64,000 nucleotides of DNA from Candidatus Hodarchaeota archaeon (GTDB taxonomy: Archaea; Asgardarchaeota; Heimdallarchaeia; Hodarchaeales; Hodarchaeaceae), in the NCBI GenBank assembly GCA_016840035.1, contig JAEOTC010000068.1:25186-89185 (forward strand). Reading direction: 5' to 3'. Below, one piece after another: positions 24,971 to 63,537 of the stretch (its first letter is position 1; every line of letters begins with the position of its first letter). The notes beneath the pieces are model-generated. The model made no database searches, was not told the origin of the DNA, and saw only the letters and a program-made list of their open reading frames with translations. The position numbers were made by a program, and so were the translations under genes.

Positions 24971-25852
24971 GTGAAAGGTTCCTCCAAACCTGAATGGATT
25001 CGAGCGAAGCTTCCAACGGAGACGAAATTTAAAGAAGTAAATAAGCTAATCGACGGTCAAGGGCTTCATACTGTTTGTAAAGAAGCGTTTTGTCCGAATA
25101 GAACAGAATGCTGGGAATCTGGAACCGCAACATTCTTGTTAATGGGTTCTTATTGCACCAGAGCCTGTAAATTTTGTGATGTGGAAACAAGAAATCCTCA
25201 CCAATTTCTAGATGAAGAAGAACCAAGGAAATTGGCTGAAGCGGTTAACGAACTTAATCTCAAATTCACTGTTCTTACATCTGTTACAAGGGATGATCTC
25301 CCAGATGGGGGTGCTGAACATCTTGCGAAGTGTATTAGGATGATAAAGCGGAAAAATCCTACAACATTAGTGGAAATTCTTATACCAGATTTTAAGGGGA
25401 ATATTCTTTCATTAAAGAAAATAATCGAGGCTAAACCAGAAGTAATAGGCCATAATATTGAAACCACAGAAATTTTGACACCAAAAATACGCGATCGAAG
25501 AGCAAAATATCAACAATCATTATTTGTCCTGAAGACAATTAAAGAAATAGACTCCACAATTTTAACAAAATCTTCATTAATGTTAGGCTTTGGAGAAACT
25601 GATGAACAAATTTTCTCTTCACTCAATGACCTAAAACGAGCCAATGTGGATATAGTTACTTTAGGTCAATACCTTCAACCTTCCAGAAAAGCTCTTCCAG
25701 TTCAAGAGTATGTGGAACCAAGTGAGTTTGTATATTGGGAAAAAATCGCTCAAAAAATCGGATTTTCGGCCGTTGTATCTGGACCTCTAGTAAGAAGTTC
25801 CTATCAAGCAGGAATACAATATTCTAAAGTCAAACAACTCTCGAAGGAATGA
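24971..25852 (+). CDS. lipA: Lipoyl synthase
   Basis: CKEAFCPNRTEC plus radical SAM CTRACKFC; GQYLQP; RSSY. Confidence 0.97.
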   Translation: MKGSSKPEWIRAKLPTETKFKEVNKLIDGQGLHTVCKEAFCPNRTECWESGTATFLLMGSYCTRACKFCDVETRNPHQFLDEEEPRKLAEAVNELNLKFTVLTSVTRDDLPDGGAEHLAKCIRMIKRKNPTTLVEILIPDFKGNILSLKKIIEAKPEVIGHNIETTEILTPKIRDRRAKYQQSLFVLKTIKEIDSTILTKSSLMLGFGETDEQIFSSLNDLKRANVDIVTLGQYLQPSRKALPVQEYVEPSEFVYWEKIAQKIGFSAVVSGPLVRSSYQAGIQYSKVKQLSKE

Positions 25853-33563: not shown

Positions 33564-36500
33564 ATGACTCTAGTTTCTAACGTCCAAAAAGATGAAATAG
33601 ATAGAAAAGCACCGTTCCTAACCCCTAACGCCATGACTGTCTTAGAAAAACGATATTTGCTTCAAAATGATAGAGGGGAAATCATAGAAACTCCCATACA
33701 GCTATTTTCACGTGTAGCAAAATCAATTGCCGCTAATGAGTCACGATATGGGCTTGATTCCTCTGAAATAGAGAAAAAGTTCTATGATATGATGGTTAAC
33801 TTTGAATTTTTACCTAATAGTCCTACACTAATGAATGCAGGGACAAAAATTAATCAATTATCTGCATGTTTTGTATTGCCTGTAGAAGATGATATGACAT
33901 CTATTTTTCAAGCAATAAAAAATGCTGCAGTAATTCATAAGTCAGGCGGAGGTTGTGTTGCAAAGGGAACACGAGTTTTCACTTCATTTTGTGGTGTCGA
34001 AAAAATCGATACAATTTACAATCATTTTTCAAAAAAAATTGACCCAATTTTTGAGGAGAATGCTGAGATAATTGATATATCAAATAAACAAGTGACAACT
34101 TTATCATTTGATCCACAAAGCGGTGAGATCATTTCAAAACCCATTTCAAAACTATGGAAATATAGAATCGATGCTAAATCAACTGTTAAGATAACTACAG
34201 AAGGGAAAAATTACATTTCAACTAGCAATTGGCATCCCTTTTTTGTCTGGAATGGAAGAGAGATTAGTGAAAAAAGAGCTGATGAGTTAAAAATAGGAGA
34301 ATATTTGATAACCCCTAATAAAAGTGGGATCAAGAATTGGCCCTATAAAGCTTATCAAGTAATAAATGGGATCAAGTTAGATGAGAAATTTGCTTATCTA
34401 ATCGGATTGTTTCAGACAGATGGATCGTTAAATCGTTTTAAGAATACCGTGACAGGGTGGGAGGGGCTTCGTCTTCGTTTTTTCTCTACTGATAATAAAC
34501 TGCTTGAAGAATATAATACAATTCTAGAACAGATTACTGGTAATAAATACTCTATTCAGACTGATAAGAGAACTCTGCAGGGAAGTCGTATCCCTTTAAA
34601 ATCTATAACTTGTTATGATTCAAAATTAAATGGAGCGATTGAAATAGCTAATAGAGGATTGGTTGGGAGTAAATCAAAGAGAGTACGCATACCAGAGCAA
34701 ATTTTTAAATCACCCATTACCGTAATTTATGCATATATTGCAGCTGTTTTAGATGGGGATGGTCATGTCACCAAAAAAGAGAAAAAGATCCAATTTTCAA
34801 CTGGTAGTAAAGAATTTAGTGAAGATCTAAGATCATTACTATCAGCGTTGGGAATTAAATCAAGATTTCGTGAGAGATTGGAGACAAGAATTAAACGACA
34901 GAGCCTTACTTATGAAATAACTATTAGCGGGATAGGGAATTTTCATTCGATATCTGAGAAAATACTCAAATATCTTATTGTAGATGAAAAAAGAGAACGG
35001 ATTGAATCGTATCTGAAGAGACAGCATTCTTCCGAATCATGCCCGATCTCTTTTGTGATAATTGAACCATTTCTTAATAAAGCGGGGATTGAAACAGTTA
35101 ATACAGAAATTTGGAGAAAATCTATTCAAATAGGGAAGAATAAATTCTTTTTAGGACGATGGAAAGAAAAGAATAGGATTAATGTAGTGAAAGTTGTAGA
35201 GTTAATAAAGGAACTTCTCATCGGATATAAAGATTCATTCAATGAAACGGAAATTAAATTTTTATACAAATTAACCAGAATACTTCCCTCACTTACCTCT
35301 ATTATTGATATTTCTTCTGGAGAGGAGGTAGAATTCTACGATTTTACAGTTAAAGATACAAATAATTACCTCGCAGGAAATGGATTATTCTACATTGTTC
35401 ATAATACAGGATTCGCTTTTTCTCGACTCAGACCTACTAATGACAAAGTTCAAACAACTGGAGGAGTGGCATCTGGGCCAATTTCTTTTATGACCGTTTT
35501 TAACTCTGCAACTGAAATAATTAAGCAAGGAGGAAGAAGGCGTGGAGCAAACATGGGTGTATTGCGAGTCGATCATCCTGATATACTTGAGTTCATTGAA
35601 TGTAAACAGGATCTAGAGACTTTAAATAATTTTAATATTTCAGTAGGATTAACGGAAGACTTTATGCAAGCTGTTTTATCAAATTCCGATTACCCTCTCA
35701 TAAATCCTAGAAATAACGAGACTACTGGTAAATTAAATGCCCGAACTGTCTTTGACAGAATCGTCCAAATGGCACATAATTCTGGTGAACCAGGAATATT
35801 ATTTTTAGATCGAATCAATGCCGCAAATCCTACTCCTAAAATCAGTAAAATCGAAGCAACCAATCCTTGCCTTACTGGCAACACGTTAATAGCTACAGCC
35901 GATGGAAGGACTTCAGTTCCCATAAAAATTCTTGCTGAAGAATCAAAAGACGTTCCTGTATTTACTGAAGATAATCAGGGGAAAATTGCCATTAGATATA
36001 TGAGAAGACCGAGATTAACAAGAAAAAATGTACCTGTGTACAAAATAACACTAGATTCAGGAGAGAATATTAAAACCACTGCTAACCATCGGTTTTATTT
36101 GAGAGATGGCACTCAGAAGAGAACGGATGAATTAAATCCCGGAGATAGTTTGCATGTTTTGACTAAAGTGTATCAGTACCAAAGAGGTAAATATTCTGTT
36201 AATCCTCATAAGAAATATGTACGAATGTACAACCGAGGGCATTCAGATAAATCAGAACATACAGTTCTAGCCAAATTTTTCCATAATAATGATATAGAAA
36301 TACCTGAAGGTTATGTTGTTCATCATATTGATTTTAATTCTGAAAATAATCATCCTTCAAATCTAGAAATCATGACTTCAGAGGAACATAATTCATTACA
36401 CAACTTATCTAAAAAAGGAAATAGAAATCCAATTTTTAAAATAAAATCAGATCCAGATAAATGGGAAGAATACAAGGCAAAAAATCCGTTTTATCACCCT

Positions 36501-38726
36501 ACTGGAGAGAACAATCCAAGATACGGTGTGAAAGTAACAGAAGAAACAAAGAAGAGAATCGGAAAATCACGGAAGAAGTCATACGAAGATAATCCAGTAC
36601 AAATCCAAGTTCTTTCCGAAATCGCACGAAAGAATTGGAATGATCCTGATTATGTTGATAAAACGCAAAAAGGTTTTCTACGAAAAGCACAAGTAAAATT
36701 GAAAGAATGTCAGCAACAAACAGATCTGAAATGCTCTTTAAATGGAAACAGCGTTATGGTTGAGAAGACCTGTGAGTATTGTGGGAAAAACTTTCATATT
36801 AGCTTCAGTAAGAGAGAGATTAGTTCGTGTAGAAAAGAGTGTTTTATGGATTTCTTCAATGAGAATGAGGAAATGATTCAGAAACGGACACGAGGAGTAA
36901 GACGTACCTACCAGATACAATCTAAGGAAAAACGTGAAAACCAGCTACAGTGTTTTATTGATTTAAAGAGAAAATTAAACCGTGATCCCTTGAAAAAGGA
37001 ATGGGAGAACCAATGCAAAAAATCTTCAATACCCTATAGATTAGGAACAGAATTCGGCTTTAAAACTTATACTGAACTCAAAAATTCAGCCCTCATGTAC
37101 AATCATACAGTTCTCGCTGTAGAATTATGTGGGGATGAGGATGTATACAATGGGACAGTTGATGATTTTCATAATTTTTTCATAGGTGGGTTTAAAGAAG
37201 AAAAAACAGGAAAAGAAAGAATAAAATTCGTCAAAACTCAGAACTGCGGTGAGCAACCCTTATTACCATATGAATCGTGCAATTTGGGCTCAATAAACCT
37301 TGGAAAGATGGTTAAAACTGATTCCACTCAGACTTATGGATATAGCATAGATTTTGAGAGGTTAGAACAGATTACTCGACTTTCAGTGAAATTTTTAGAC
37401 AATGTGATTGATCTTTCCACTTTTCCACTACCAGAAATAGAAGAAATGACAAAATCTAACCGTAAAATTGGACTTGGAGTGATGGGTTTCGCAGATCTAC
37501 TAATCAAATTAGGAATCTCCTATGATTCACTGGAGGGTCTCGGAATCGCGAAAAAAGTGATGAAATTTATTCATCAAACTGCACTTCAAGCATCACAAGA
37601 TTTGGCAAAAGAAAGAGGTTCATTTCCAAATTTTCCAGAAAGTACGTTGGCCGATCACTACACGATGATGAGGAATGCAACATTAACTACTTTAGCGCCT
37701 ACAGGGACTATTTCAATTATTGCGGGATGTTCCAGTGGAATAGAACCTTTATTCATGTTAACCTATGAAAGACGAGTTCTTGATGATGATATTCTGGTTG
37801 AAGGATATCCATTTTTTGTGGAGAAAGCAAAACGATTGGGCTTTTACTCACAGGACCTGATGAAACAGGTGGCATTGACTGGTTCAATCTCAGAAATTGA
37901 AGAAATACCCGAGGATATCAAAAAAGTCTTCGTCACGGCACATGATATAACGCCCGAGGCCCATGTGAGAATGCAGGCTGTTTTTCAAGGATCTGGTGTA
38001 GATAATGCTGTCTCGAAGACAATTAATTTTCCTCACGAGGCCTCTTTAGAAGATATACAACAAGCCTACCTCCTTGCATATGAATTGGGGTGTAAGGGCA
38101 TAACCGTTTATCGTTCAGGTTCCCGCGCTTATGATGTACTGTCAAAGAAAGGAACGAATGAAGAATCCAGTGTTGTTGCTGAACCAATTAAAATTAAAAA
38201 ACCGCGACAAAGACCCAATGTCACTCAAGGAATTACTGAACGAATAAGAGTTGGTTGTGGGACAAATTTATTTATTACAATCAACGAAGATGAAGAAGGT
38301 CTAACAGAACTGTTTTTATCCTTGGGTAAATCAGGAGGATGTGTAGCTTCTCATATTGAGGCGATGGGAAGGCTCATTTCATTGACACTACGTAGTAGAA
38401 TTGATCCTGAAGAAATTATTTTACAATTAAAAGCGATCAGATGTCCTTCACCGACTTTCGGACCAGAAGGACCAGTCCTTTCATGTGCTGATGCAGTTGC
38501 TAAATCCGTCGAAAGGTTTATCGAACAATATAGTCAAAATGGGAACGAAAAAAATTCTGTCAATGAGGGACAAAAAGATGTTAAAGAGTATGGTGACCCA
38601 GAAACGCTTTATTTAACTCATACAACATCAGGATTACGACCAGAATGTCCAGAGTGTGGTAATATTGTGGAACATAGTGAAGGGTGCATTCTTTGTCGGG
38701 TTTGTGGATATTCCAAGTGTGGATAA
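33564..38726 (+). CDS. nrdJ: Adenosylcobalamin-dependent (class II) ribonucleotide reductase, about 777 aa after removal of two inteins; C-terminal TSCPD and Zn-ribbon domains
   Basis: PNSPTLMN, QLSACF, GG|TG, RRGANM, NP|CGEQPL, APTGTIS, KGITVYR. Confidence 0.95.
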   Translation: MTLVSNVQKDEIDRKAPFLTPNAMTVLEKRYLLQNDRGEIIETPIQLFSRVAKSIAANESRYGLDSSEIEKKFYDMMVNFEFLPNSPTLMNAGTKINQLSACFVLPVEDDMTSIFQAIKNAAVIHKSGGGCVAKGTRVFTSFCGVEKIDTIYNHFSKKIDPIFEENAEIIDISNKQVTTLSFDPQSGEIISKPISKLWKYRIDAKSTVKITTEGKNYISTSNWHPFFVWNGREISEKRADELKIGEYLITPNKSGIKNWPYKAYQVINGIKLDEKFAYLIGLFQTDGSLNRFKNTVTGWEGLRLRFFSTDNKLLEEYNTILEQITGNKYSIQTDKRTLQGSRIPLKSITCYDSKLNGAIEIANRGLVGSKSKRVRIPEQIFKSPITVIYAYIAAVLDGDGHVTKKEKKIQFSTGSKEFSEDLRSLLSALGIKSRFRERLETRIKRQSLTYEITISGIGNFHSISEKILKYLIVDEKRERIESYLKRQHSSESCPISFVIIEPFLNKAGIETVNTEIWRKSIQIGKNKFFLGRWKEKNRINVVKVVELIKELLIGYKDSFNETEIKFLYKLTRILPSLTSIIDISSGEEVEFYDFTVKDTNNYLAGNGLFYIVHNTGFAFSRLRPTNDKVQTTGGVASGPISFMTVFNSATEIIKQGGRRRGANMGVLRVDHPDILEFIECKQDLETLNNFNISVGLTEDFMQAVLSNSDYPLINPRNNETTGKLNARTVFDRIVQMAHNSGEPGILFLDRINAANPTPKISKIEATNPCLTGNTLIATADGRTSVPIKILAEESKDVPVFTEDNQGKIAIRYMRRPRLTRKNVPVYKITLDSGENIKTTANHRFYLRDGTQKRTDELNPGDSLHVLTKVYQYQRGKYSVNPHKKYVRMYNRGHSDKSEHTVLAKFFHNNDIEIPEGYVVHHIDFNSENNHPSNLEIMTSEEHNSLHNLSKKGNRNPIFKIKSDPDKWEEYKAKNPFYHPTGENNPRYGVKVTEETKKRIGKSRKKSYEDNPVQIQVLSEIARKNWNDPDYVDKTQKGFLRKAQVKLKECQQQTDLKCSLNGNSVMVEKTCEYCGKNFHISFSKREISSCRKECFMDFFNENEEMIQKRTRGVRRTYQIQSKEKRENQLQCFIDLKRKLNRDPLKKEWENQCKKSSIPYRLGTEFGFKTYTELKNSALMYNHTVLAVELCGDEDVYNGTVDDFHNFFIGGFKEEKTGKERIKFVKTQNCGEQPLLPYESCNLGSINLGKMVKTDSTQTYGYSIDFERLEQITRLSVKFLDNVIDLSTFPLPEIEEMTKSNRKIGLGVMGFADLLIKLGISYDSLEGLGIAKKVMKFIHQTALQASQDLAKERGSFPNFPESTLADHYTMMRNATLTTLAPTGTISIIAGCSSGIEPLFMLTYERRVLDDDILVEGYPFFVEKAKRLGFYSQDLMKQVALTGSISEIEEIPEDIKKVFVTAHDITPEAHVRMQAVFQGSGVDNAVSKTINFPHEASLEDIQQAYLLAYELGCKGITVYRSGSRAYDVLSKKGTNEESSVVAEPIKIKKPRQRPNVTQGITERIRVGCGTNLFITINEDEEGLTELFLSLGKSGGCVASHIEAMGRLISLTLRSRIDPEEIILQLKAIRCPSPTFGPEGPVLSCADAVAKSVERFIEQYSQNGNEKNSVNEGQKDVKEYGDPETLYLTHTTSGLRPECPECGNIVEHSEGCILCRVCGYSKCG
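33954..35405 (+). mobile_element. Intein 1 (484 aa) with LAGLIDADG homing endonuclease
   Basis: GGG|CVAKGT...IVHN|TGF; block B TSNWHPF; LIGLFQTDG and YIAAVLDGDG. Confidence 0.93.
35868..37244 (+). mobile_element. Intein 2 (459 aa) with HNH endonuclease, NUMOD3-like and Cys-rich modules
   Basis: NP|CLTGNT...KTQN|CGE; TANHRF; VVHHIDFNSENNHPSNL. Confidence 0.92.
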
Positions 38727-44138: not shown

Positions 44139-44891
44139 GTGATTCTTAGTCTTTATTTCAAAGTAAAAATTTTCGAGGAACATTCATTGAGTCAAGAAGA
44201 AGAACTAGTGTTTGAAGAGTCGCAACAAGGGATCAAAATTGTTATCTGGGGACCAACGTTGGCAGGGAAAACCACAGCTTTAAGTTTATTCCATGCAATC
44301 AAGAAAAAAGAAGATCCTGAGAGTGTTTATAACTTTTTAAAACTTGAAGATAAAGCTACAGAAAGAACTATTGGCTTTGACCAAGCTACGTTCGGTTTAG
44401 GAGGAGGTCCAGGTAAGGGATTCAAGTACCATCTTTTTACAACACCTGGGCAAGACAGATTTAAATCTATGAGGAAGATTGTCATTAATGGACTTCATGG
44501 ATTAATTGTTGTTATTGATTCGGAAAAAGCCCGATGGGAAGAGAATAGGGACAGCTTAAAAGAACTTTTTGAAGTCTCTGGAGATAAAATATACTCCGGA
44601 GATATAAAAATTGCCATAATGCTAAATAAAATGGATTTACCTGTTGAATCTCGTATCAGTGCTGCAGATGTTGGTAGATTAATGATCGAGGCAGGTGTCT
44701 CTGATAAATTACGGGATACTTTCGCAAGTACGTTTGAAGTAAGCTGCTTAGATGCCTTGAGCGCTTTACGTGATGCATGGAATAAGGGAGAATGGAATCC
44801 CAAGCAACGCCCTCAGGCGGTACAGAGAATTATTCAACCTATTCAAATGGTAATTCGTGATATCCTAATTTCAGAACTCCAAAAACGTTGA
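44139..44891 (+). CDS. MglA-like small GTPase (start may be TTG 44187)
   Basis: IVIWGPTLAGKTT, RTIGFD, TTPGQ, NKMD. Confidence 0.85.
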   Translation: MILSLYFKVKIFEEHSLSQEEELVFEESQQGIKIVIWGPTLAGKTTALSLFHAIKKKEDPESVYNFLKLEDKATERTIGFDQATFGLGGGPGKGFKYHLFTTPGQDRFKSMRKIVINGLHGLIVVIDSEKARWEENRDSLKELFEVSGDKIYSGDIKIAIMLNKMDLPVESRISAADVGRLMIEAGVSDKLRDTFASTFEVSCLDALSALRDAWNKGEWNPKQRPQAVQRIIQPIQMVIRDILISELQKR

Positions 44892-45093: not shown

Positions 45094-46980
45094 ATGAAGA
45101 AAAATAGACTACAGGAAATTATTGAGGGTCGCCATAAACTTGAAGAAAAGGAGAGATTACGGTTAGACCTCAAACCTTCTGAAATTCCTAGTTTACTAAA
45201 AGGAGAGGCCGCTTTATCCCCTACTACAAAAGCGGGGTGGCAAACCGAGGGTATTATACGCGCAATTATTTCAAACCTCCATAATGGAAAAAATTGGGAA
45301 GAGCTTTTCATTTATGGGGGTAGTGGAAAAGCGATGAGGAATTGGAAGGCCTTTTACGAAACCATCGACATGCTAAAATCTTTGGAGACAAATGAAACCC
45401 TTTTTATGCAATCTGGAGTACCTTATGGAAAAACCATAACTCACGAATTTGCCCCACGGTGTGTTGTGACAAATTCAGTCATTGTTCCGAACTGGACACA
45501 GTCCTTTCAAGAAATGGTTGACGCAGGACTGACAGTTTATGGTCAAATGACTGCAGGAAGTTGGATTTTTATTGGATTACAAGGGATAATCCAGGGGACA
45601 TATGAAACAATGATTGAAGCAATAAAATCCGCTGAAACAGCAGTTAACTTTAGTAAATTAAATTCATTTGAACAAAAAATCATCGTTACCGCGGGCCTTG
45701 GTCTAATGGGAGGAGCTCAAGCCTTAGCCATTAAAATGACTGGAAAAATCGCGCTTATTGCCGAGATTGACCCCTCAAATCTAGATCGGATGTACAACGA
45801 AGGCCGAGAAAAAGGAATCCCATATCTAGATATCAAGGTTACTTCTATCGAAGAGGGTGTAAAACTTGCACAGAAGTATGCGGAAAAAGATGAACCAACC
45901 TCTATTGGAATATTATGTAATGCCGTGGATTTGCTTGACTATTTACTAAAGTATGAAATTACTCCTCATGTTCTTACTGACCAAACTTCAGCACATGATA
46001 TGTTAAATGGATATGTTCCCTCTGGTATGTCTTTTGCAGAAGCAGTGGCCCTTAGAAAATCTAATCCTCAAAACTATAAAAAATTAGCCTTTAAAACAGT
46101 AAAAAAGCATGTAGAACTAATGGTAGAGCTACAGAAAAGAGGATCGGAAACATTTGATTATGGAAATAATATTCGGACACAAGCGTTTAAGGGGGGCTAT
46201 GGTAATGCTTACGATTTTTCAGGCTTTGTTCCAAATTATATAAGGCCATTGTTTTGTGAAGGAAAAGGACCATTTAGATGGGCCGCTTTATCTAACAATC
46301 CAGAAGACATTTTGACAACTGATAAATATGCTAAAATGCTTTTTCATGACGATTCAATGCTAGTTAAATGGATCAACCTCGCGTCAGAGTATATTCCTTT
46401 TGAGAAAGGCCTACCCGCACGAGTATTTTGGGCAGGTTACAAAGGTAGAGCAGCATTTGGTATGTTGTTAAATAAACTGTATGCCGATAAACTGATAGAT
46501 GCACCCGTAATAATAGGTAGAGATCATTTAGATGGAGGATCTGTAGCAAGTCCTTTTAGAGAAACTGAAGGGATGAAGGATGGATCAGATGCGATAGGTG
46601 ATTATCCAGTACTGAACCTTTTGGGAAATTCTCTTTCTGGTGCAACATGGGTGAGCTATCATGGAGGAGGAGGAGTCGGGGTCGGATATTCCCTTCATGC
46701 TGGACAGGTATGTGTTGCTGATGGTACTCAAATTTCACAGGAACGATTATTTAGAGTACTTACTTGGGATCCTATGTCAGCAATATTGCGTCATGCGGCT
46801 GCAGGGTACGATAAATCTATTCAGATTGCAAGAACAAACGGAATCATCGTTCCTGGAATCACCGAAACAAAATTTGTTGATTATAGACAATTATATGAAG
46901 AATTGATTTCAAAAGTCAAGGAACGTACTGGAATAAGTTTATTTCCCCCCTCAGACAACATCAATTTTCAGATCCTTTAG
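45094..46980 (+). CDS. hutU: Urocanate hydratase
   Basis: YGQMTAGSW, DQTSAHD, FDYGN, GPFRW, GRDHLD, HGGGGVG. Confidence 0.96.
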   Translation: MKKNRLQEIIEGRHKLEEKERLRLDLKPSEIPSLLKGEAALSPTTKAGWQTEGIIRAIISNLHNGKNWEELFIYGGSGKAMRNWKAFYETIDMLKSLETNETLFMQSGVPYGKTITHEFAPRCVVTNSVIVPNWTQSFQEMVDAGLTVYGQMTAGSWIFIGLQGIIQGTYETMIEAIKSAETAVNFSKLNSFEQKIIVTAGLGLMGGAQALAIKMTGKIALIAEIDPSNLDRMYNEGREKGIPYLDIKVTSIEEGVKLAQKYAEKDEPTSIGILCNAVDLLDYLLKYEITPHVLTDQTSAHDMLNGYVPSGMSFAEAVALRKSNPQNYKKLAFKTVKKHVELMVELQKRGSETFDYGNNIRTQAFKGGYGNAYDFSGFVPNYIRPLFCEGKGPFRWAALSNNPEDILTTDKYAKMLFHDDSMLVKWINLASEYIPFEKGLPARVFWAGYKGRAAFGMLLNKLYADKLIDAPVIIGRDHLDGGSVASPFRETEGMKDGSDAIGDYPVLNLLGNSLSGATWVSYHGGGGVGVGYSLHAGQVCVADGTQISQERLFRVLTWDPMSAILRHAAAGYDKSIQIARTNGIIVPGITETKFVDYRQLYEELISKVKERTGISLFPPSDNINFQIL

Positions 46981-47046: not shown

Positions 47047-47511
47047 ATGGACAATCTAACACAAGAATCACCGTCAATCTCTCAGTGGATATCAAAGCAC
47101 AAAGGAATTACTTTCTCATTAGGATTTGGTATAATATTCACAGGTATAGAAGTACTCTCAATTTTTGGATTCGACATAACCACTAGTGGCCCAATGTTGG
47201 TTATGATGCAAACTATTCTGTTAATAATCATCTTCTTTGGGATGATGATTTTTATCTATAATTTTGGATACTTAGTAATCATGTTGACCGTTGATGAGGG
47301 TTTAAATGATGAGGAAGTAATTTTACTTAAGTGGATATTACGTAGAGCTGCATTGATATCGGTAGGATGGTTTGTTGGTGTTATTGTATTGATGTTAACC
47401 TTGAGTGATCAACCGTATTTATTAGCTGGAATGAATTGTCTTCTATTAGCCTTATTATTCATTATTCTTAGGAAAGGTGAGAATCCTTTAGTTGAAGGAG
47501 TCTCAATTTAA
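47047..47511 (+). CDS. Four-TM membrane protein
   Basis: Four hydrophobic segments; 32 nt upstream of the ChlD-like gene. Confidence 0.7.
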   Translation: MDNLTQESPSISQWISKHKGITFSLGFGIIFTGIEVLSIFGFDITTSGPMLVMMQTILLIIIFFGMMIFIYNFGYLVIMLTVDEGLNDEEVILLKWILRRAALISVGWFVGVIVLMLTLSDQPYLLAGMNCLLLALLFIILRKGENPLVEGVSI

Positions 47512-47543: not shown

Positions 47544-50501
47544 ATGGTTGATCCTAAAGGAAAATCACAGGAAATTTTTGAAGTACAACTATCATTTTCA
47601 GATTTTATAGGAAATCATTCATTGAAACTTCTCCTCATTCTTCTAGCAATCGACCCATCCTTGAGTGGAATGATTATTAAGGGGAATACAGGGACTGGTA
47701 AATCATTAATTCTTAAATTATTCAGGCAACTCAAAATACCCGCTGTTTTTCATAGGGATTGTGATTTTAACTGCTCTCCTAATAGTGAAACTTTGTGTGA
47801 AGAATGTAGTAGCGAAATTTTATTATCCCATACTAATAATATCAAGAGTTCTCATGTTCCCATTATTAAGATGCCTGTTTATACCTCACTCGATAATTTA
47901 ATTGGGAATCTCGATTTGCAATTCGATTTCCGTCCTGGTATGCTTGGGAAGGCTAATAATGGATATTTAATTGTTGACGATTTTCATTTACTTACAGAAG
48001 AAACAAAAGCTGTTCTTTTGAATATATGGCAAAGAAAAGTAAACTCTGTTCAGAGGAATACTGTCTCCTTAGAACACCCCAGTAATTTTTGTTTGATATC
48101 TACATACAATCCAGTATTCTATGATAAAGAACCCAGCTGGATGGATAGGTTTGCTTTTTCTTTCCCCCTACATTATGACCAGACTGTTGAGACTCATCTT
48201 GATATCATGAATCAAAACCTATACAAAGAAGATGCACAAGAGATTGCACACATAGAGGAAATATATGACGAAAATTCTTCCCTTATAAAGGAAATCATCC
48301 GTTCTCGTAAGCTATTGGGTAAAGTATCGATTTCTTCTGATCTTGTTTTGTTTATCGCGAAAATTTGCAGTTTCAAAGGTCTAGATGGCGTAAGAGCCGA
48401 TATTTCGTTTGTAAAAGGAGCAAAAGCTCTAGCTAGCTTTCACAATCGGACCTATGTGACTAAGGAAGACATTTTATTTCTTATCGCGCCTGTTTTATCC
48501 CATCGTTTGTCAACTAGGGGCCTTAATGAATTGATGGAATCATTAGATGGCATGCAGGCTAGTGAAAGAGTTGAATCTAGGAAGAAAGGTTTGAAGCAGG
48601 AATTGACAAGTGATTTTCCTCAAAAAAAGGGTAAAACATTCTCTTTTTTCTCAATAGTAGAAAAAATAATTCCATTTATTAGTATACTTTTCATTTCTTT
48701 TGTTATTAGTGCTTTACTCGTTAGATTTTTTTTTACACCTAGAGTGTTCATGTTTATTTTTGGTATTTTATCTTTATGGGGTTTTGGCTCCTTTTTGCTT
48801 TACATTTTGGTACGGAGACGCAAAAAATTGTTACTCCAATACAGAAAGAAAGAAGATCAGCAAGATCAACCCCCTGATGTAAGTTCCTTTTCAAAAGTAA
48901 AATCTCTACGTTTAACAGAAACGACAAAAGAAGAAACTCGAGAGTTCAAGAAGAAACCTGAGCTTGATATTGAGGAAGATAAATCTACTCGTGGAAAAAT
49001 TTTTCGATTTATAGGACTTCAAAAACGAAGAGGGATGATTACTTTATCACAGAACCAAAGATATTGGATTTATATTTATGGAATCTTCATGATTTTCATT
49101 AGTATCATTCTTTACACAATTTTGATAATATACCTACCTGCAGAAATATGGGTTGCTATTTTATTCCTACTTCTCTGCCTTTTAACAATAGGATTCCTCC
49201 AACAATACAATCAGGAAAAATGGAGAATCAGACGAGTGGCAGATGTTGGGGCATCAGCTGAAGAAACTAGTACCATGATAGATGGAGAGGGAATTGGCTC
49301 TCATATATCTCCAACAAAGAATCAAAATCGAGATTACAATTTAATGGAAGAATATGGGAGAAATATATGGCGAAAATTATCTAATTTAAACATGGTTCAT
49401 CCTGAAACGGAAAAAAATGTGAAAAATCGACTGTTATTAGATACCAAGTCAGAAGGTACACACAAATCAATATCGAGAATAACTGGTGAAAGATTACCAC
49501 AGGAAAGAGGACTAATCGATACGAAATTTCGATATCAGGCTGGTAAACGAGCTTTAAGTCTAAGTTCATCTCAAACAGGACGAATTGTCGGAAGTAAACC
49601 TTTCAAGGAATCTCCTAAGAATATTCATATAATGGCAACTATAATGAATGCCTTAAGACATCAGAAACGCAGAAAATTAAGGGATTCAACAAAAAAGATT
49701 GAGATTAAGCTAGCAGATGTTCATGAAAAAGTGTACTGTGCACGAGTGTCAGCTACAATAATTTTCGTGCTTGATCTATCTGAATCTATTATGAATGTAA
49801 TCAATACTGTTTCAGCTTCAGTAAATTGGCTAAGTAGACAAGCGTATTTATATCGTGATAGGGTAGGCCTTGTAGTTTTACAAAAAACACAGGCAAAGGT
49901 GATACAGGCTCCAACTTCAAACCTAAATTTAGTGAAGCGAAAATTACAAGAATTAGAAGTATCCGGATCCACTCCTTTACCCTCAGGTATACAAAAATCG
50001 TTAGATTTAATCCGGATTGATCGTATCAGAAGCAATGATGAAACTATTCCGATGATAGTACTAATAACTGATGGTGCTTCAAATATCCCACTTTTAACAG
50101 ATCCTATAACAGGAATTAAACGAGATAAACCAATTTCATCCCTTGGTATCGATTTGGCTATCAAAATGTCCATAAATGATTGTCTTATACTTGGACAACA
50201 GATAAAAAAAGACAAGATATCATTGGTAATTTTCAGCACGAATACTCAAGGAATGTATTTATTACAAAAATATCCTGGGAGGGGACAACAAACCCCTTCA
50301 CAATTTTTGGATACACTTATGAAAACATCAGACTTTTTCCAAGGAAAACAATTTATTCACCTTTGGTCTTACACATTACTAAAAACGATGCAAAATATCA
50401 CAGGAGGGCATTTATTTTTTCTAACAAAAGAATTTATAGATAATAATTTTGAAACGTTAAGAATAGCACGATCTAAAATTATAGCTAGTATAAACGGGTG
50501 A
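47544..50501 (+). CDS. ChlD-like AAA+/vWA protein with four internal TM helices
   Basis: GNTGTGKS, degenerate Walker B IVDDF, PGMLGKAN, DGVRAD; TM helices at about aa 375-552; MIDAS DLSES...TP...ITDG. Confidence 0.85.
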   Translation: MVDPKGKSQEIFEVQLSFSDFIGNHSLKLLLILLAIDPSLSGMIIKGNTGTGKSLILKLFRQLKIPAVFHRDCDFNCSPNSETLCEECSSEILLSHTNNIKSSHVPIIKMPVYTSLDNLIGNLDLQFDFRPGMLGKANNGYLIVDDFHLLTEETKAVLLNIWQRKVNSVQRNTVSLEHPSNFCLISTYNPVFYDKEPSWMDRFAFSFPLHYDQTVETHLDIMNQNLYKEDAQEIAHIEEIYDENSSLIKEIIRSRKLLGKVSISSDLVLFIAKICSFKGLDGVRADISFVKGAKALASFHNRTYVTKEDILFLIAPVLSHRLSTRGLNELMESLDGMQASERVESRKKGLKQELTSDFPQKKGKTFSFFSIVEKIIPFISILFISFVISALLVRFFFTPRVFMFIFGILSLWGFGSFLLYILVRRRKKLLLQYRKKEDQQDQPPDVSSFSKVKSLRLTETTKEETREFKKKPELDIEEDKSTRGKIFRFIGLQKRRGMITLSQNQRYWIYIYGIFMIFISIILYTILIIYLPAEIWVAILFLLLCLLTIGFLQQYNQEKWRIRRVADVGASAEETSTMIDGEGIGSHISPTKNQNRDYNLMEEYGRNIWRKLSNLNMVHPETEKNVKNRLLLDTKSEGTHKSISRITGERLPQERGLIDTKFRYQAGKRALSLSSSQTGRIVGSKPFKESPKNIHIMATIMNALRHQKRRKLRDSTKKIEIKLADVHEKVYCARVSATIIFVLDLSESIMNVINTVSASVNWLSRQAYLYRDRVGLVVLQKTQAKVIQAPTSNLNLVKRKLQELEVSGSTPLPSGIQKSLDLIRIDRIRSNDETIPMIVLITDGASNIPLLTDPITGIKRDKPISSLGIDLAIKMSINDCLILGQQIKKDKISLVIFSTNTQGMYLLQKYPGRGQQTPSQFLDTLMKTSDFFQGKQFIHLWSYTLLKTMQNITGGHLFFLTKEFIDNNFETLRIARSKIIASING

Positions 50502-50508
50502 ACTTTGA

Positions 50509-51360
50509 TTGGGAAAACAGATAATAAGCCTTCCTAAGCAACTTTATCGACAAGGAGAACTCATTCAAGTAAGAATCCAATACTCACCGTCAGATTTTCC
50601 TATCCAGAAATGTGATATCAAATTAATTGGAAAAGAGAAAGTAGAATTCACCTTCCAATCTTTTACAGGTAAAAAAGGATTTCAACCAATTTGGGGTCTA
50701 TTACTTCCGAGTAAACATTTTTATCAGGAAACCATTTTTTTAGATGAGCCCGTTGAGCTCGAGATATCGGGAAAAAGTCATGATGTAGCTGAAATCGAAA
50801 TCCCCCTCAATGCCATACCTTCGTATTACGGAGAAAATGGAAAAGTAACATATTTTGTTCAAGTACGGTATGAAAGTATGACAAGAGTTGAAAAGAAAGG
50901 TGAAGTCCAAATTCTGATCGACTCAGACTATCAAACCAAAAAACAACGAGATACAGTTAATATAGGGTCAGGAAGTATAGTAATTGACCATCTAAGTCCC
51001 TTACTTATTAATCAGGAAAACCGCATTTTAATCAATACAGAGGAAATAAAGACCCCTATTCGATTGATGTTGACAGGACAAGAAACGGTGACAGCATCAG
51101 GTGTTACAATTAATAATCCAGTTAAAGAAGTTCCACTTGGGCAATTTTTTTCAAAGGAAGACATTACTGACTTTCAAATGAAGTTTATCATCCCATCAGG
51201 ATATCAACAGAGTTTCGAGGGGCTGCATACACGACTTGAATACTCAATAGAGGTTCAGTCGGTACATTTGCTATCTCGATTTGGGATTAAACGCGAAAAA
51301 ATTCGGACAATCTCCCGAATACCAGTCCGTGTAGAAGAAGGAACGCAAATTAATCAATAG
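50509..51360 (+). CDS. Arrestin/Vps26/SpoOM-fold protein (two beta-sandwich repeats)
   Basis: Y..GE.I.V...IKLIGKE...IP...IPSYYG..GKVTY.V.V, repeated as L.GQE...FIIP....QSFEG....LEY.IEV. Confidence 0.65.
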   Translation: MGKQIISLPKQLYRQGELIQVRIQYSPSDFPIQKCDIKLIGKEKVEFTFQSFTGKKGFQPIWGLLLPSKHFYQETIFLDEPVELEISGKSHDVAEIEIPLNAIPSYYGENGKVTYFVQVRYESMTRVEKKGEVQILIDSDYQTKKQRDTVNIGSGSIVIDHLSPLLINQENRILINTEEIKTPIRLMLTGQETVTASGVTINNPVKEVPLGQFFSKEDITDFQMKFIIPSGYQQSFEGLHTRLEYSIEVQSVHLLSRFGIKREKIRTISRIPVRVEEGTQINQ

Positions 51361-51406: not shown

Positions 51407-51895
51407 TTGCGACACATTAAAAATAGAAATGCAAAGATATTGGTTTACATGTTACGACGAGAATTAGAACCTATCTTAGATGACATCATTAATTGGAGCA
51501 TAAGAATAATTGGAATTAGTGTCGTAATCTCAATTTTAAGTATTTTTATCACTGTAGATTTATCGGAATCCAGTACCTCATTTATTGAGATTTTTATCCT
51601 ATCTGTCAGTAATTTTTCATTTTTTCTTGGCATGCTCGCAATCTGTGCTGGATTGTTAATAGTATTTTTCAAAAGACCTGAAGGATCAGGTTCTTCCATA
51701 AGAAACAAAGAGGAGTTTATACCAATATATAAGAAAGGACGAAGAAAAACTCCTGTTTCTCAATTAGAGAAGAAAATTCATTCAAACTCTAAAACATCTT
51801 CCAAGCGTGATCTAAAATTAATACTTAGTGGTATTATCTCAGTTGCATTTGCAATAATTATATGGATTGGCTACTCGGTTATTATTCTGATCTGA
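51407..51895 (+). CDS. Three-TM membrane protein with basic cytoplasmic loop
   Basis: Hydrophobicity pattern. Confidence 0.65.
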   Translation: MRHIKNRNAKILVYMLRRELEPILDDIINWSIRIIGISVVISILSIFITVDLSESSTSFIEIFILSVSNFSFFLGMLAICAGLLIVFFKRPEGSGSSIRNKEEFIPIYKKGRRKTPVSQLEKKIHSNSKTSSKRDLKLILSGIISVAFAIIIWIGYSVIILI

Positions 51896-51905
51896 TTCCT
51901 TGTGT

Positions 51906-52655
51906 TTAAGGTTGGAATAACGAAAAGGCAATCAATACTGGAAGAGGAGCAAGGCATAAGGCAATGAGAATCGCATAGGCGTTTCTAAGATCTTTATTCC
52001 TGTTGAAAAATAAATAAATAGATACAATTGACTTTTCCAAAAATAAAATCAAAAGGTAATTGTGAAGAACAGAATCTAATAAAGTAATTGCACGCAATTC
52101 TAGTTCTTCACCATTAAATCTAGTATGCCAAGGTGAGATAGGTTCAAGACCAGAATCTAGAATTGATAATACACTTCCATCATCGAACTCGACTTCTACC
52201 CAAGCATGCCATTTACCGATAAGTACATAACTATCGTACCCTCTTAAAATAAGAAGTGAACATGCTACAATTGCTAGTCCATCACAATCATCTGATCCGC
52301 TTTTTAAAACCTCTGAAATACTTGGCCGGTAATCCCAGGACAAATAATTTATGATATCTTCGTTATATGTTATTCGTTGGCGTATAAACCTGCCTACAGC
52401 GTAAACTTCTAATGCCTCAGGATCAGTTGGGTATGAAGACAGAGCTAAGAAATCATTCGCAAAGTAGTATTCAAACTCATAATTTAAAACCTGAATTTGA
52501 GGATCTTGGGGTTGAATTGAATCTGTAAGAGCAATTCGATGATTTACCTGATCAGACCAAGCAAGGGGATTGGGTGTAAACCCTGTGAATAGATAAATTA
52601 TAGTAAGGAGTCCTGCAACAAGTAGTTCTTTATGTGAAATAATTCGAGGACTCAT
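51906..52655 (-). CDS. Membrane-anchored transglutaminase-like (Cys-His) domain protein
   Basis: GSDDCDGLA...SLL...G, HAWVEV; N- and C-terminal hydrophobic helices. Confidence 0.8.
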   Translation of the reverse strand: MSPRIISHKELLVAGLLTIIYLFTGFTPNPLAWSDQVNHRIALTDSIQPQDPQIQVLNYEFEYYFANDFLALSSYPTDPEALEVYAVGRFIRQRITYNEDIINYLSWDYRPSISEVLKSGSDDCDGLAIVACSLLILRGYDSYVLIGKWHAWVEVEFDDGSVLSILDSGLEPISPWHTRFNGEELELRAITLLDSVLHNYLLILFLEKSIVSIYLFFNRNKDLRNAYAILIALCLAPLPVLIAFSLFQP

Positions 52656-52877: not shown

Positions 52878-54881
52878 CTATTGAACACGGTTACCCTTTT
52901 CATCCTCGGAGTTGTCTTTCTCAAGAATTTGGGTCACATTTTCAGCTGCTTTTTTCCTTGATGCGATAAATCGATCTTTGGAAATTTGATCTAATCGATC
53001 AACCATAGGTTGTGTCAATAAAGTCCTTGAAGGTATACTCTCCTGTAGAGTGTGAACTTTTCCCTGATAATAAACTGTTGTGAGGAAAAAGAAAAGCATT
53101 CCGATAAAAAATAATGGGAGAATATCATAATGTTCTGGTTTACTTTGAAAGCGGTTTAAACTACTATCAAAACTCAAGAGATCTATGTAAAAATCTTTTG
53201 TTAAAGAATATGCAGCCCTATAATTCATCTTATTGTACTCATTGAGGATGTCGTTATATGAAGCGTTCAAATACAGGAGATAGGTTTGAAGATTAGGATT
53301 ATAGGTTATGGAGTCAATTCTCTGATATGCATTATTAATTTTGAATAAAGATGCTTGAAGTAATGTATCGATTTGTCCACGTTGGATATTATCCTTTGCA
53401 AAAATACTAAACTTCGAAGCATGAGTATAATAAGTCATAGGATCATTTACGAAATTTCCAATCATCCCAAATTGAAACGGATGCATTAAAGCAATTTGAT
53501 GTCCAAGCTCATGAATTATAGTTTGGGTTAATCCTTGTAAGGGTTGAGGATTCGATCGATTATTTCCATATGTCAAACCATAGTCGTGACTGATGATGGT
53601 TAATGGAATATCATTTGTACCTCTTAATGCGATTCCTAAAAGGCCTGGTTCCATCTTCGCCTTTTCTGGAATAGCGAAAGTCGCATTGTCAAACAAAAAA
53701 GCGAATGTTTGAAAATGAGAGGTATAAAACGCTTTATATTCCTGTTCAAAATAACGAGAAGATTCTGTATAAAGTTTATAGTACATTGGTAAGAGATCTA
53801 CAGAATATTCCCAACGTGAATTTTTATTAAATTCTCCCCAATGGACTGTTGAATCTTGAACTTCATTGTAAAGATCTGGTATATCAGAAAGGTTAACAAA
53901 TCTGACTGAAGCTTCAATATTATACCATGGAAGTATATCTCTAAACACTTCTTCAATGAGGGTGGTGTTAACAGTCCAATCAAGATCTGATGTTGGAATT
54001 CCAGTTAAGTTGTTGAGGACTAGAATGTCGAATGCATAGTGAAGTCCTGTATCGAAGTCACCCATAGGGGTTAAAGGTTTATAAACAAAATCCTGAACCC
54101 AGAGGTTTCTCTCAATTTCATATATCCATTCAGCGAGATATTCTGCTAGTCTATTTCGTCCATATGGAGTATTAAGATTATATAATGATGTCAACTCTTG
54201 AATGGTACTATTCTGTCCACTATCTCGTAGGACATAAGAATCTGCTGATAGATCAAGGTAATACAATCTTTCTTGATTCCCATATCCGATCATATAGTTC
54301 CGCCCAAAAGGAGCACCAGAATCTGGATCGATATATGTCTCATTATACCAATGCTGTTTGTATTCTGTATCATCGAGATTAGAGAAATTTCCTATTATTA
54401 GGCTATATCCAGGGATAGGAACTTCCCCCGTCAGTTGACCATAATTATCAGCTAACCATTCAAGAGTATCACTGGCCGAGATATATTTTCCTGTGTCGCT
54501 AGTGCCATCAGAATGGTTTATAGTGTCTGGTATAGCAGTGGCATTCAAGAATGTAAAAAATGAGGTGTCAAAATTAGTGGGAGCGAGTTCATAAGTATGA
54601 TTTACAAAGAATAGTTTTTCAGTGTAGTCTTGATCGAAATAACTATACACATTTTGTTCAAGCAGTGATTCAGCAAGAGGATTTTGAGGAGTACCAAGAA
54701 TGGAGCTCATAATGGCGTGATCGAATCCTGTGAATATAATTCTCGATCTTATTGTACTTGATTGGTAAGGAAAATTAGGTATAGTATAATAATCAGCTGC
54801 AACTGGGGTAATATCGATTGTAGCATTAATCAATATTAGAAGAAGGCCTATAAATACAATTTTTTTTCGATTTGAATTCAT
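52878..54881 (-). CDS. Secreted, membrane-anchored zinc metalloprotease (metzincin-like)
   Basis: Signal peptide from Met 54881; HELGHQIALMHP; Met-turn DPMTY; C-terminal TM helix. Confidence 0.8.
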   Translation of the reverse strand: MNSNRKKIVFIGLLLILINATIDITPVAADYYTIPNFPYQSSTIRSRIIFTGFDHAIMSSILGTPQNPLAESLLEQNVYSYFDQDYTEKLFFVNHTYELAPTNFDTSFFTFLNATAIPDTINHSDGTSDTGKYISASDTLEWLADNYGQLTGEVPIPGYSLIIGNFSNLDDTEYKQHWYNETYIDPDSGAPFGRNYMIGYGNQERLYYLDLSADSYVLRDSGQNSTIQELTSLYNLNTPYGRNRLAEYLAEWIYEIERNLWVQDFVYKPLTPMGDFDTGLHYAFDILVLNNLTGIPTSDLDWTVNTTLIEEVFRDILPWYNIEASVRFVNLSDIPDLYNEVQDSTVHWGEFNKNSRWEYSVDLLPMYYKLYTESSRYFEQEYKAFYTSHFQTFAFLFDNATFAIPEKAKMEPGLLGIALRGTNDIPLTIISHDYGLTYGNNRSNPQPLQGLTQTIIHELGHQIALMHPFQFGMIGNFVNDPMTYYTHASKFSIFAKDNIQRGQIDTLLQASLFKINNAYQRIDSITYNPNLQTYLLYLNASYNDILNEYNKMNYRAAYSLTKDFYIDLLSFDSSLNRFQSKPEHYDILPLFFIGMLFFFLTTVYYQGKVHTLQESIPSRTLLTQPMVDRLDQISKDRFIASRKKAAENVTQILEKDNSEDEKGNRVQ

Positions 54882-55110
54882 TTTGGGTACACACCAATTC
54901 TTGGTGAATAAATTTTCTCTTTTATCTGAATCTGAGATACCATGAAGGTTGTTACAGAAAATCTTTGGAATATGAAAAGTTTCACTGATCTGGCAGGATA
55001 ATCTTAGCTCGATGACTGCTTCAACTAGTACCAATGTTCACCAAAAAAGGAGTGAAAGAAAAACTCGTGTGAGTTAAAGAGTTTTCTAAGGTTTTTATCC
55101 TGACATTTCA

Positions 55111-61931: not shown

Positions 61932-62468
61932 ATGAAACATAAGCCATTTAATAGGAATTCGATAGCACTATTTATTGATCTAAAAATGACCATTCCTGAA
62001 AAGAGGTTCTTTTTAACCCAGATTCTTCTAGCTGGGTTACTTTATGTAAGTATTTACACTTTACTTGCATATTTTGTTTTCCCTGTAGACTTAATCGAAG
62101 GATCCAATGTTATATCCCGTGTCCTAGGATCAGCTTTCTTTTTCGGCGTTTTCAGCGGATTATTCTCAGGTCTTTTTGCAGGAATGCGTATTAATAGATT
62201 GAATCTTAGTTCTCCGATAACTTCTGGTTTAATCGCAGGGGCAATTTCTGTTCTTGTTGGTTCGCTTTTATTTCCTGTAGTAGGAGCTTTAGTTAGAGTA
62301 AGCGTTTTTGGTGAAAACCCAGCAGATTTTAATCTCATCTATAGGTACTTAATTAACCTGAGTTTAATAGGTGTATGGCCTGGTACCTTCGTCAGTTTGT
62401 TTTCAGGGTCATTTGGTGGAGTTTTATCCAGTGGAATTGCGCCTGCTGCCCGAGAAAGCCAAAGCTAA
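61932..62468 (+). CDS. Gly-rich four-TM membrane protein
   Basis: GxxxG-rich hydrophobic helices. Confidence 0.65.
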   Translation: MKHKPFNRNSIALFIDLKMTIPEKRFFLTQILLAGLLYVSIYTLLAYFVFPVDLIEGSNVISRVLGSAFFFGVFSGLFSGLFAGMRINRLNLSSPITSGLIAGAISVLVGSLLFPVVGALVRVSVFGENPADFNLIYRYLINLSLIGVWPGTFVSLFSGSFGGVLSSGIAPAARESQS

Positions 62469-62484
62469 ATTGATCACATCAGAT

Positions 62485-63537
62485 TTATTTTTTATTGTTC
62501 TTTTCCAGAATCCTGATAAATTTTTTCTTAATTTCAATCCGATTTGGAGGTTCTCGTAAGCCTCCTTCTCGTGTACGGTGTAATAAAGTTAGATATGCAC
62601 ATCTAAGGATATCATCGTTTTGAATGGTATTTCGCCCCTCAAATGCTGCAAAAGCCCTACTCGCTCTTGCTAAGACGATATCACTTCGGAATCCATCTAC
62701 CTCTAATGCAATACATAACTTCGAAATCAGAAGCTTATTCTCTTCACTTAATTGGATTGAAGAAAGATTATTTCGAGCCTGAATGATCTTATTTCGAATC
62801 TTTTGATCTTCTTGAACATGATGAGTTAATTTTTCAGATTTACTCTCCTCTAAGGCTAAATTTATTTCAATAATCCTCATTCGTTCTTGGAGGTCTTTAA
62901 CGTTTCCCGCCTGTGCGAAAAGACTTAACCGATCGAGTAATTGAGGTCTCAATTCTCCCTCTTCGGGGTTCATGGTTCCAATTAAGATAAAATTACTTGG
63001 ATGCTGAACTGAGATATTCTCTCTTTCAATGATATTAACTCCAGATGCAGCACAATCTAGTATGGTGTCAACTAAATGGTCTGGGAGGAGATTGATTTCG
63101 TCTATATATAAAATGTCTTGATTAACACTTGCTAATATGCCAGGAGATAGTGCTTCAATACCTAGATCAATTATTTTTTCAATATCTAGGGAACCAATTA
63201 CTCTATCCTCAGTAGCACCTAACGGCATAGTAATCACACGCATTGGTCTTTCTGTATAGTCCATAGAAGATTTATTTTGAGAATATCTTGTGCGACATGC
63301 CTCACACATAAGCCTCGGGTCTACAGGTGAGCATTGAAATGGACATTTCATTACTTCAATGGAAGGTAATATAGAACTCAAAGATCGAACTAATGAACTT
63401 TTTCCTGTACCTTTTGGTCCAGAAATCAGTACTCCACCAATTTTTGGGTCAATGATGGATAAAATCAGTGCGATTTTTGGATCTGCTAACCCAAGAAGCG
63501 CAGAGAAAGGTAAGGATAGACCGCTATATTGTTTCAT
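62485..63537 (-). CDS. ChlI-like AAA+ ATPase (chelatase subunit I family)
   Basis: GPKGTGKS, ATEDRVIGSLD, YIDEINLL, GTMNPEEGELRPQLLDR. Confidence 0.92.
   Translation of the reverse strand: MKQYSGLSLPFSALLGLADPKIALILSIIDPKIGGVLISGPKGTGKSSLVRSLSSILPSIEVMKCPFQCSPVDPRLMCEACRTRYSQNKSSMDYTERPMRVITMPLGATEDRVIGSLDIEKIIDLGIEALSPGILASVNQDILYIDEINLLPDHLVDTILDCAASGVNIIERENISVQHPSNFILIGTMNPEEGELRPQLLDRLSLFAQAGNVKDLQERMRIIEINLALEESKSEKLTHHVQEDQKIRNKIIQARNNLSSIQLSEENKLLISKLCIALEVDGFRSDIVLARASRAFAAFEGRNTIQNDDILRCAYLTLLHRTREGGLREPPNRIEIKKKFIRILEKNNKK

Follow-up and report, generated by a model that had tools for sequence, protein, structure and literature searches.

The 64,000-nucleotide window that we analysed (positions 25,186 to 89,185 of contig JAEOTC010000068.1, assembly GCA_016840035.1 of a Candidatus Hodarchaeota archaeon) contains a single uninterrupted reading frame at 47544-50501 (+) that encodes a protein of 985 residues, in which a ChlD-like AAA+ module and a von Willebrand factor A (vWA) domain with a metal ion-dependent adhesion site (MIDAS) are separated by four transmembrane (TM) segments. 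The GC content is even over the gene region (0.32-0.36). The parts of this gene, referred to here as the 4-TM gene, and a stand-alone ChlI gene of the same window are as follows:

47544..50501 (+), whole gene, 985-residue ChlD-like AAA+/4 TM/vWA protein with 13 full-length orthologues
47586..48563 (+), AAA+ module of the ChlI type plus lid (residues ~15-340), with Walker A retained, DD at Walker B, no NPEE and a very long tree branch
47760..47810 (+), four-Cys insert (C73, C77, C86, C89), shared by 11 of the 14 orthologues and the partner ChlI
48642..48806 (+), TM hairpin 1 (TM1 ~375-393, TM2 ~401-421), with a 7-residue predicted outer loop and an invariant Pro399
48807..49061 (+), predicted cytoplasmic loop of about 85 residues, both ends basic, with conserved SFSKVK and LDIEED-x-S; disordered in the model
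49062..49211 (+), TM hairpin 2 (TM3 ~507-529, TM4 ~535-555), with a 5-residue predicted outer loop and an invariant Pro532
49212..49535 (+), predicted cytoplasmic linker after TM4, with conserved RRVADIGAS and GIGSH; confined to the 4-TM family
49536..50243 (+), pre-vWA strands and vWA domain with complete MIDAS; best-conserved part, vWA 75% mean pairwise identity
50244..50501 (+), C-terminal helical extension past the vWA domain, from the orthologue alignment and AlphaFold2 model
62485..63537 (-), stand-alone ChlI, 350 residues, catalytic motifs all intact; presumed motor partner

Pfam matches to the 985-residue protein were to Mg_chelatase (PF01078, residues 43-190), AAA_lid_2 (PF17863, 273-324) and VWA_2 (PF13519, 739-844). 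The N-terminal ~330 residues match solved ChlI/BchI structures from end to end (8osf, 7.5e-43; 1g8p, 8.7e-42; 6l8d, 5.7e-41), and residues 738-850 match the BchD integrin-I domain of 2x31 (4e-11). An AlphaFold2 model built from a 49-sequence alignment had a mean predicted local distance difference test score (pLDDT) of 73.8, with the AAA+ and vWA domains modelled confidently; a Foldseek search with this model gave BchI and ChlI as the best matches (target TM-score about 0.8), and a search of the ESM Atlas returned generic ChlI/ChlD clusters only. The protein did not classify with the MoxR clade, its best AAA+ families being Mg_chelatase/ChlI, and the CHU_0153 ATPase structure 2r44, which we take to be MoxR-like, was a weak match (4e-06). 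The best NCBIfam models were chelatase models, but the protein scored below their equivalog cut-offs (339 vs. 779.45 bits for TIGR02442, 253 vs. 499.55 for TIGR02031). Its Walker A motif reads GNTGTGKS and its Walker B LIVDDFHLL, where ChlI has VDE; a four-Cys insert (C73-x3-C77-x8-C86-x2-C89) is found within the AAA+ module, and the MIDAS of the vWA domain is complete (D744-x-S746-x-S748, i.e., DLSES, with T810 and D843).

Between these domains lie four hydrophobic segments (about residues 375-393, 401-421, 507-529 and 535-555; Kyte-Doolittle 19-residue maxima of 2.1-2.8), paired at nt 48666-48806 and 49062-49208, where AlphaFold2 modelled helices (residues 367-397, 400-439, 503-530 and 533-568, pLDDT about 80) separated by disordered loops. 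The four hydropathy peaks recur at the same alignment positions in all 14 orthologues and are absent from the linkers of about 100 soluble ChlD-like relatives. The segments have basic flanks, with Lys plus Arg counts of 4 before TM1, 8 after TM2, 5 before TM3 and 4 after TM4. Based on the even number of segments, the strongly basic N-terminal, middle and C-terminal flanks, and outer loops of just 7 (TM1-2) and 5 (TM3-4) residues, we infer that the AAA+ and vWA domains both face the cytoplasm. Because the TM segments are even in number and have basic flanks, and because the N-terminal module is ATP-dependent, we rejected an extracellular, adhesin-like vWA domain; an internal duplication as the source of the two hairpins was also rejected (hhalign probability of 1%). 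The first-pass annotation of this DNA had placed two hydrophobic hairpins with basic flanks between the AAA+ and vWA domains, at about 48666-48812 and 49062-49199, in place of the soluble Pro/acidic linker of ChlD, and had taken the even TM count to leave both domains in the cytoplasm. Its coordinates agree with the computed hydropathy segments; hydropathy, Lys plus Arg counts and the AlphaFold2 helices all bear out the hairpins, for which classical ChlDs have no counterpart; and the basic flanks and short outer loops support the topology. The motifs that it had read in the two domains (intact Walker A, Walker B Glu changed to Asp, retained Cys insert, intact MIDAS) were all seen as well.

A search of 5.8 billion clusters identified 13 full-length orthologues (945-987 residues, 38-68% identity) which, wherever the source was named, came from Hodarchaeales, Hodarchaeota or Heimdallarchaeota; the next matches were ordinary soluble ChlD proteins of 640-760 residues that covered one third of the query. 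When the insert alone (residues 340-664) was searched against 1.84 billion representatives only 8 clusters matched at E < 1e-30, and beyond these no relatives outside the 4-TM family were found at E < 1e-10. The search for this architecture across Asgard and other genomes that the first-pass annotation had proposed led to a family with a Hodarchaeales/Heimdallarchaeota source wherever one was named, and the chimeric assembly about which it had cautioned could be set aside, since the architecture is collinear in 13 orthologues from different assemblies. In the genome group of the window the gene is present in 7 of 22 genomes. Our literature searches for TM-containing ChlD proteins, or for Asgard links of ChlD or vWA proteins or between arrestins and AAA+ proteins, found no description, and the 4-TM ChlD-like family appears new to the literature searched.

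Within this family conservation is distributed unevenly, mean pairwise identity being 75% for the vWA domain, 55% for the pre-vWA strands, 49% for the AAA+ module and 31-41% for the TM hairpins. A motif table showed that every member keeps a Walker A of the form G-x-T-G-x-G-K-S/T and the invariant MIDAS, and that every 4-TM protein has D-D, not D-E, at Walker B; the sensor-I block MNPEEGELRPQ of ChlI (NPEE) has been lost, the Arg finger has become Lys in 12 of the 15 4-TM rows (the protein of the window retains Arg), and the sensor-II Arg is retained. DE, NPEE and LLDRF are kept by all of the forms with a single hairpin (2-TM), soluble forms and classical forms in the table. In the AAA+ tree a very long stem leads to the 4-TM modules, whose tips are long as well; in the vWA tree the tips of the 4-TM domains are short. 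By these sequence comparisons the AAA+ module appears broadly degenerate and the vWA domain the most conserved part of the protein. The four-Cys insert, which 11 of the 14 members share with the partner ChlI, is typical of this archaeal ChlI group and dispensable in three members.

A tblastn search of the entire 4.3-Mb assembly identified exactly one other ChlI/ChlD-type gene, the stand-alone ChlI, which matches Synechocystis ChlI (6l8d) at 5e-93, is about 50% identical to genuine ChlI, and is the obvious presumed motor partner of the 4-TM protein. In all six 4-TM genomes checked one intact, stand-alone ChlI was located on the same contig as the 4-TM gene, at ~12 kb in the window and at 12-14 kb in G119, G130, G292 and G238; in G262, which lacks the genes in between, ChlI and the 4-TM gene are immediate, convergent neighbours. 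That the 4-TM protein is an adaptor, as the earlier annotation suggested, rather than a motor fits well with the family-wide loss of the Walker B Glu, of sensor I and, in most members, of the Arg finger, together with an intact lone ChlI in the genome. Adjoining the ChlI gene is one for a Gly-rich protein of 178 residues with three hydrophobic segments (61932-62468, +), whose position is kept in four related genomes.

We searched for the genes that a chelatase would need. CobN/ChlH (PF02514) was not found in the genome of the window, nor in five further 4-TM and five 2-TM genomes, and it was present in none of the 79 genomes (at least 85% complete) of the TM-bearing families f1, f11 and f17. 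Control genomes gave the expected positives; across Asgard genomes PF02514 was found in 49 of 268, and in several of these it lies within a few kb of a classical, soluble ChlD of ~670 residues. HemB (PF00490) and HemC (PF01379) were not found in five 4-TM genomes that are 87-94% complete. A published survey described a comparable situation in Bathyarchaeota metagenome-assembled genomes (MAGs), which carry chlI/chlD without cobalamin genes (PMC7110647). The best reading of these data is that the 4-TM protein is not a tetrapyrrole chelatase, in line with the doubt about metal chelation expressed in the first-pass annotation. Three of the five 4-TM genomes without HemB and HemC contain CbiX-domain open reading frames (ORFs) of 167-182 residues (G119:C31:30866-31093, G292:C86:8127-8372 and G238:C182:9511-9756).

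Related ChlI/vWA genes were matched in 274 of 301 Asgard genomes. In other Asgard families (Thorarchaeota, Baldrarchaeum and others), one gene encodes a protein of 850-890 residues in which a single TM hairpin lies between an intact ChlI-type AAA+ module, with about 50% identity to the ChlI of the window, and a vWA domain; one such 2-TM fusion is from Candidatus Baldrarchaeum yapensis. In Thorarchaeota (family f11, L010-L019) the 2-TM gene is often split into adjacent genes for an AAA+ protein (~400 residues) and then a TM-vWA protein (~475-495 residues), and 175 Thorarchaeota-type TM-vWA proteins matched at E < 1e-10 (including P0038-P0050 and P0157-P0266), nearly all of them named Thorarchaeota. 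As such one-hairpin relatives are widespread in other Asgard lineages, membrane anchoring of ChlI/vWA proteins would not be unique to the 4-TM protein. No separate ChlI was found in the 2-TM or soluble-fusion genomes, where the ChlI-type frames were the fusions themselves or, in two genomes, frames of ~372-385 residues. Soluble ChlI-vWA fusions of ~800 residues are found in Bathyarchaeia and also in part of the genome group of the window, where three genomes (G256, G136 and G139; L030, L031 and L032) have a soluble fusion of ~795 residues instead of the 4-TM/ChlI pair; as the AAA+ modules of these own-group fusions nest in the Bathyarchaeia clade (Shimodaira-Hasegawa-like approximate likelihood ratio test (SH-aLRT) support of 97-99), this suggests that they were acquired by lateral transfer.

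The Baldr-type 2-TM fusions and the stand-alone ChlI of the 4-TM genomes form a group (SH-aLRT 84), and the 4-TM vWA domain lies in the clade of archaeal ChlI-vWA fusions, separate from the soluble ChlD proteins of the classical type (~640-760 residues); based on the latter grouping, the ChlI/ChlD split seen here may be an independent duplication. The simplest and likely account is that a single-gene ChlI-TM-vWA ancestor in Asgard archaea was duplicated and subfunctionalised, so that one copy would have been reduced to the ChlI motor while the other would have held the anchor and vWA domain as its ATPase decayed. Homology between the 4-TM and 2-TM hairpins, or among the hairpins of the 2-TM groups, was not detectable (best probability of 26%); membrane anchoring may or may not have had a single origin.

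Taken together, we consider it probable that the 4-TM protein is a membrane-tethered, non-catalytic adaptor of the ChlD type that couples the soluble ChlI ATPase to a client through its MIDAS. As the Walker A Lys is retained, the AAA+ module probably still binds nucleotide, without hydrolysis, and it could provide a docking ring for the intact ChlI in the way that BchD and ChlD dock BchI and ChlI. The two hairpins would fix the inter-domain linker in the membrane, leaving both domains and the conserved loops on the cytoplasmic side, so that the vWA/MIDAS could hold an acidic residue of the client, via a bound metal ion, at the cytoplasmic membrane face while ATP hydrolysis by ChlI, by analogy, remodels the client at the membrane surface. 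The client would differ from the porphyrin-binding CobN/ChlH subunit, with membrane proteins, possibly the operon partners described below, as candidates; more speculatively, the conserved acidic LDIEED loop might serve as an internal ligand of the MIDAS. There are precedents for such coupling: in Mg-chelatase the integrin-I/MIDAS of ChlD binds the client subunit and ChlD bridges the client to ChlI (PMC6604950); in MoxR/vWA pairs the vWA protein docks at the AAA+ pore and the client, which can be a membrane enzyme such as cNOR, is remodelled (PMC9976466); and in CobST the vWA domain moves to the AAA+ pore upon ATP binding (bioRxiv 10.64898/2026.10.09.757910). Several points weigh against the proposed adaptor. 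The Asp in place of the Walker B Glu could allow slow hydrolysis; the evidence for the topology comes from hydropathy, the positive-inside rule and AlphaFold; five of the six 4-TM genomes checked have ChlI 12 kb away and not in the operon; the genomes are MAGs that are 83-94% complete, so that the absences are not absolute; and around the genes for the 2-TM and soluble forms a search for conserved, functionally linked neighbours turned up only unrelated housekeeping genes.

The 4-TM protein resembles ChlD/BchD in its impaired ChlI-like N-terminal AAA+ module, long linker and C-terminal integrin-I/vWA domain with MIDAS, in having a separate active ChlI partner, and in its matches to the BchI and BchD structures. 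It differs in that four TM segments with family-specific conserved loops take the place of the soluble Pro/acidic stretch of ChlD, in its score below the TIGR02031 cut-off, in the grouping of its vWA domain with archaeal ChlI-vWA fusions rather than with classical soluble ChlD, and in its genomic setting, where neither the H subunit (79 genomes) nor HemB and HemC (five 4-TM genomes) were found. With the Asgard 2-TM proteins, which have been annotated but for which we found no description in the literature searched, it shares the domain order, a hairpin at the same linker position, a cytoplasmic MIDAS-bearing vWA domain (as predicted) and CobN-free genomes; those proteins differ in having one hairpin, a fully intact AAA+ module and no separate ChlI, and homology to their hairpin is undetectable. 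As in the MoxR/vWA pairs (NorQ/NorD, CbbQ/CbbO and RavA/ViaA) and the membrane-anchored vWA proteins encoded beside MoxR (Bat/BB0172-BB0173), a hexameric AAA+ protein would act through a MIDAS-bearing vWA partner, and some of those vWA partners are inner-membrane proteins (PMC5700661, PMC3557215); however, the AAA+ module here is of the ChlI type (PF01078), the TM segments lie between it and the vWA domain in one polypeptide, and the 4-TM locus has no DUF58 or Bat-type neighbours. CobS/CobT, too, combines AAA+ and vWA domains in a motor, with the vWA domain moving to the AAA+ pore upon ATP binding, but it needs CobN, which was not found here, and CobT is soluble whereas the 4-TM protein is membrane-anchored.

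The 4-TM gene is the second of four co-directional genes, with spacers of 32, 7 and 46 nt. The other three are:

47047..47511 (+), protein of 154 residues, 32 nt upstream, with four hydrophobic segments; in 6 of 7 4-TM genomes
50509..51360 (+), arrestin-like protein of 283 residues, 7 nt downstream; in 6 of 7 4-TM genomes
51407..51895 (+), protein of 162 residues, three hydrophobic segments; closes the co-directional cluster

In five genomes, i.e., that of the window and four others, the arrestin-like gene starts 0-18 nt past the 4-TM gene or overlaps it by 4 nt, and neither the arrestin-like nor the 154-residue gene was found in any of the 15 other genomes of the group. In the exceptional 4-TM genome, G262 (83% complete), these two genes were not found anywhere, and none of the three cluster neighbours was found on the contig with the 4-TM gene. 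Based on this genome and on the broad synteny of the close kin, the ChlI and 4-TM pair is the only invariant module of the locus, and we regard the arrestin connection as a lead.

This gene cluster raises the question of whether the 4-TM protein is the core of a module for selecting or extracting membrane cargo, in which the arrestin-like protein, with the two small membrane proteins, presents membrane clients to the MIDAS/AAA+ motor. The tight spacing is suggestive, as is the fact that the arrestin-like gene has stayed in place in five genomes despite 38-49% identity, and so is the restriction of the arrestin-like and 154-residue genes to 4-TM genomes. We nevertheless think this unlikely: G262 has the 4-TM gene and ChlI side by side on a contig without the cluster neighbours, the genomes in which the genes co-occur are close kin with broad synteny (urocanase and TGT included) so that the linkage may simply be inherited, and no such neighbours were seen at the 2-TM relatives. 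A possibility that we rate as improbable is that the 4-TM protein is still a class I chelatase D subunit and works with ChlI to insert metal into a tetrapyrrole or corrinoid obtained by salvage, which an unrecognised H-like subunit would hold at the membrane. The chelatase models are, after all, the best NCBIfam matches, the partner ChlI is about 50% identical to genuine ChlI, and three of five 4-TM genomes have ORFs with a CbiX domain; against this, the scores fall far under the equivalog cut-offs (339 vs. 779 and 253 vs. 500 bits), five genomes lack HemB and HemC, and CobN/ChlH, found in none of the 79 genomes from TM-bearing families, adjoins the classical ~670-residue ChlD in other Asgard families.

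We consider it more improbable still that this is a conflict or defence system akin to the vWA-AAA+ nucleoside triphosphate-dependent systems. Such a role would explain the fast evolution of the AAA+ module and the patchy distribution of the gene (7 of 22 genomes), and transglutaminase-like and metzincin-like genes lie nearby. Yet the gene sits within a stable syntenic block of housekeeping genes, its vWA domain is strongly conserved rather than diversifying, its relatives are spread over most Asgard genomes, and PADLOC gave no match among eight neighbourhood proteins except a weak generic AAA match on ChlI. Finally, as the window comes from a MAG, the architecture could in principle be an artefact, either through misassembly into a chimera or because the hydrophobic segments do not form true TM helices; this is effectively refuted by the 13 independent full-length orthologues with the same collinear architecture, and the uniform GC content, the hydropathy peaks and the confidently modelled helices also speak against it.

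Returning to the membrane-tethered adaptor, a broader and considerably more tentative proposal is that it belongs to a dedicated Asgard membrane AAA+/MIDAS machine, made of a ChlI motor and a TM-anchored vWA adaptor and coupled in one Hodarchaeales lineage to arrestin-fold and small membrane proteins, that would select, extract or remodel membrane proteins and have no tetrapyrrole role. If such a machine exists, prokaryotes would possess an equivalent of both arrestin-guided cargo handling and MIDAS mechanoenzymes, of which midasin is one. The tight operon with the arrestin-like gene offers an experimental handle on the role of archaeal arrestins. More generally, the closest archaeal relatives of eukaryotes appear to have an unstudied membrane-associated AAA+/MIDAS system, its Hodarchaeales form being a natural case of motor/adaptor subfunctionalisation parallel to ChlI/ChlD. 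There is also a consequence for annotation. ChlI/ChlD proteins are routinely annotated as magnesium/cobalt chelatases, and such annotations have been used to infer chlorophyll/B12 metabolism in archaeal MAGs (e.g., PMC7110647); for these Asgard lineages they are likely misleading, given membrane-anchored ChlI/vWA motors without CobN/ChlH in whole lineages and five 4-TM genomes without HemB and HemC.

Upstream of the operon are genes for a small Arf/Ras-like GTPase (44139-44891, +), 88-95% identical across related genomes, and a stand-alone urocanase (45094-46980, +), both far better conserved than the ChlD-like gene. Convergent on the operon is a gene for a 249-residue protein (51906-52655, -) with hydrophobic ends and a weak match to a transglutaminase core (E 0.003), seen in four syntenic genomes. 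Also encoded is a 718-residue protein (52878-55034, -) without a Pfam match, which has hydrophobic N- and C-terminal segments and a zinc-protease-like motif, HELGHQIALMH, and is kept in the syntenic loci. A very long ORF of 1720 residues occupies 33564-38726 (+).

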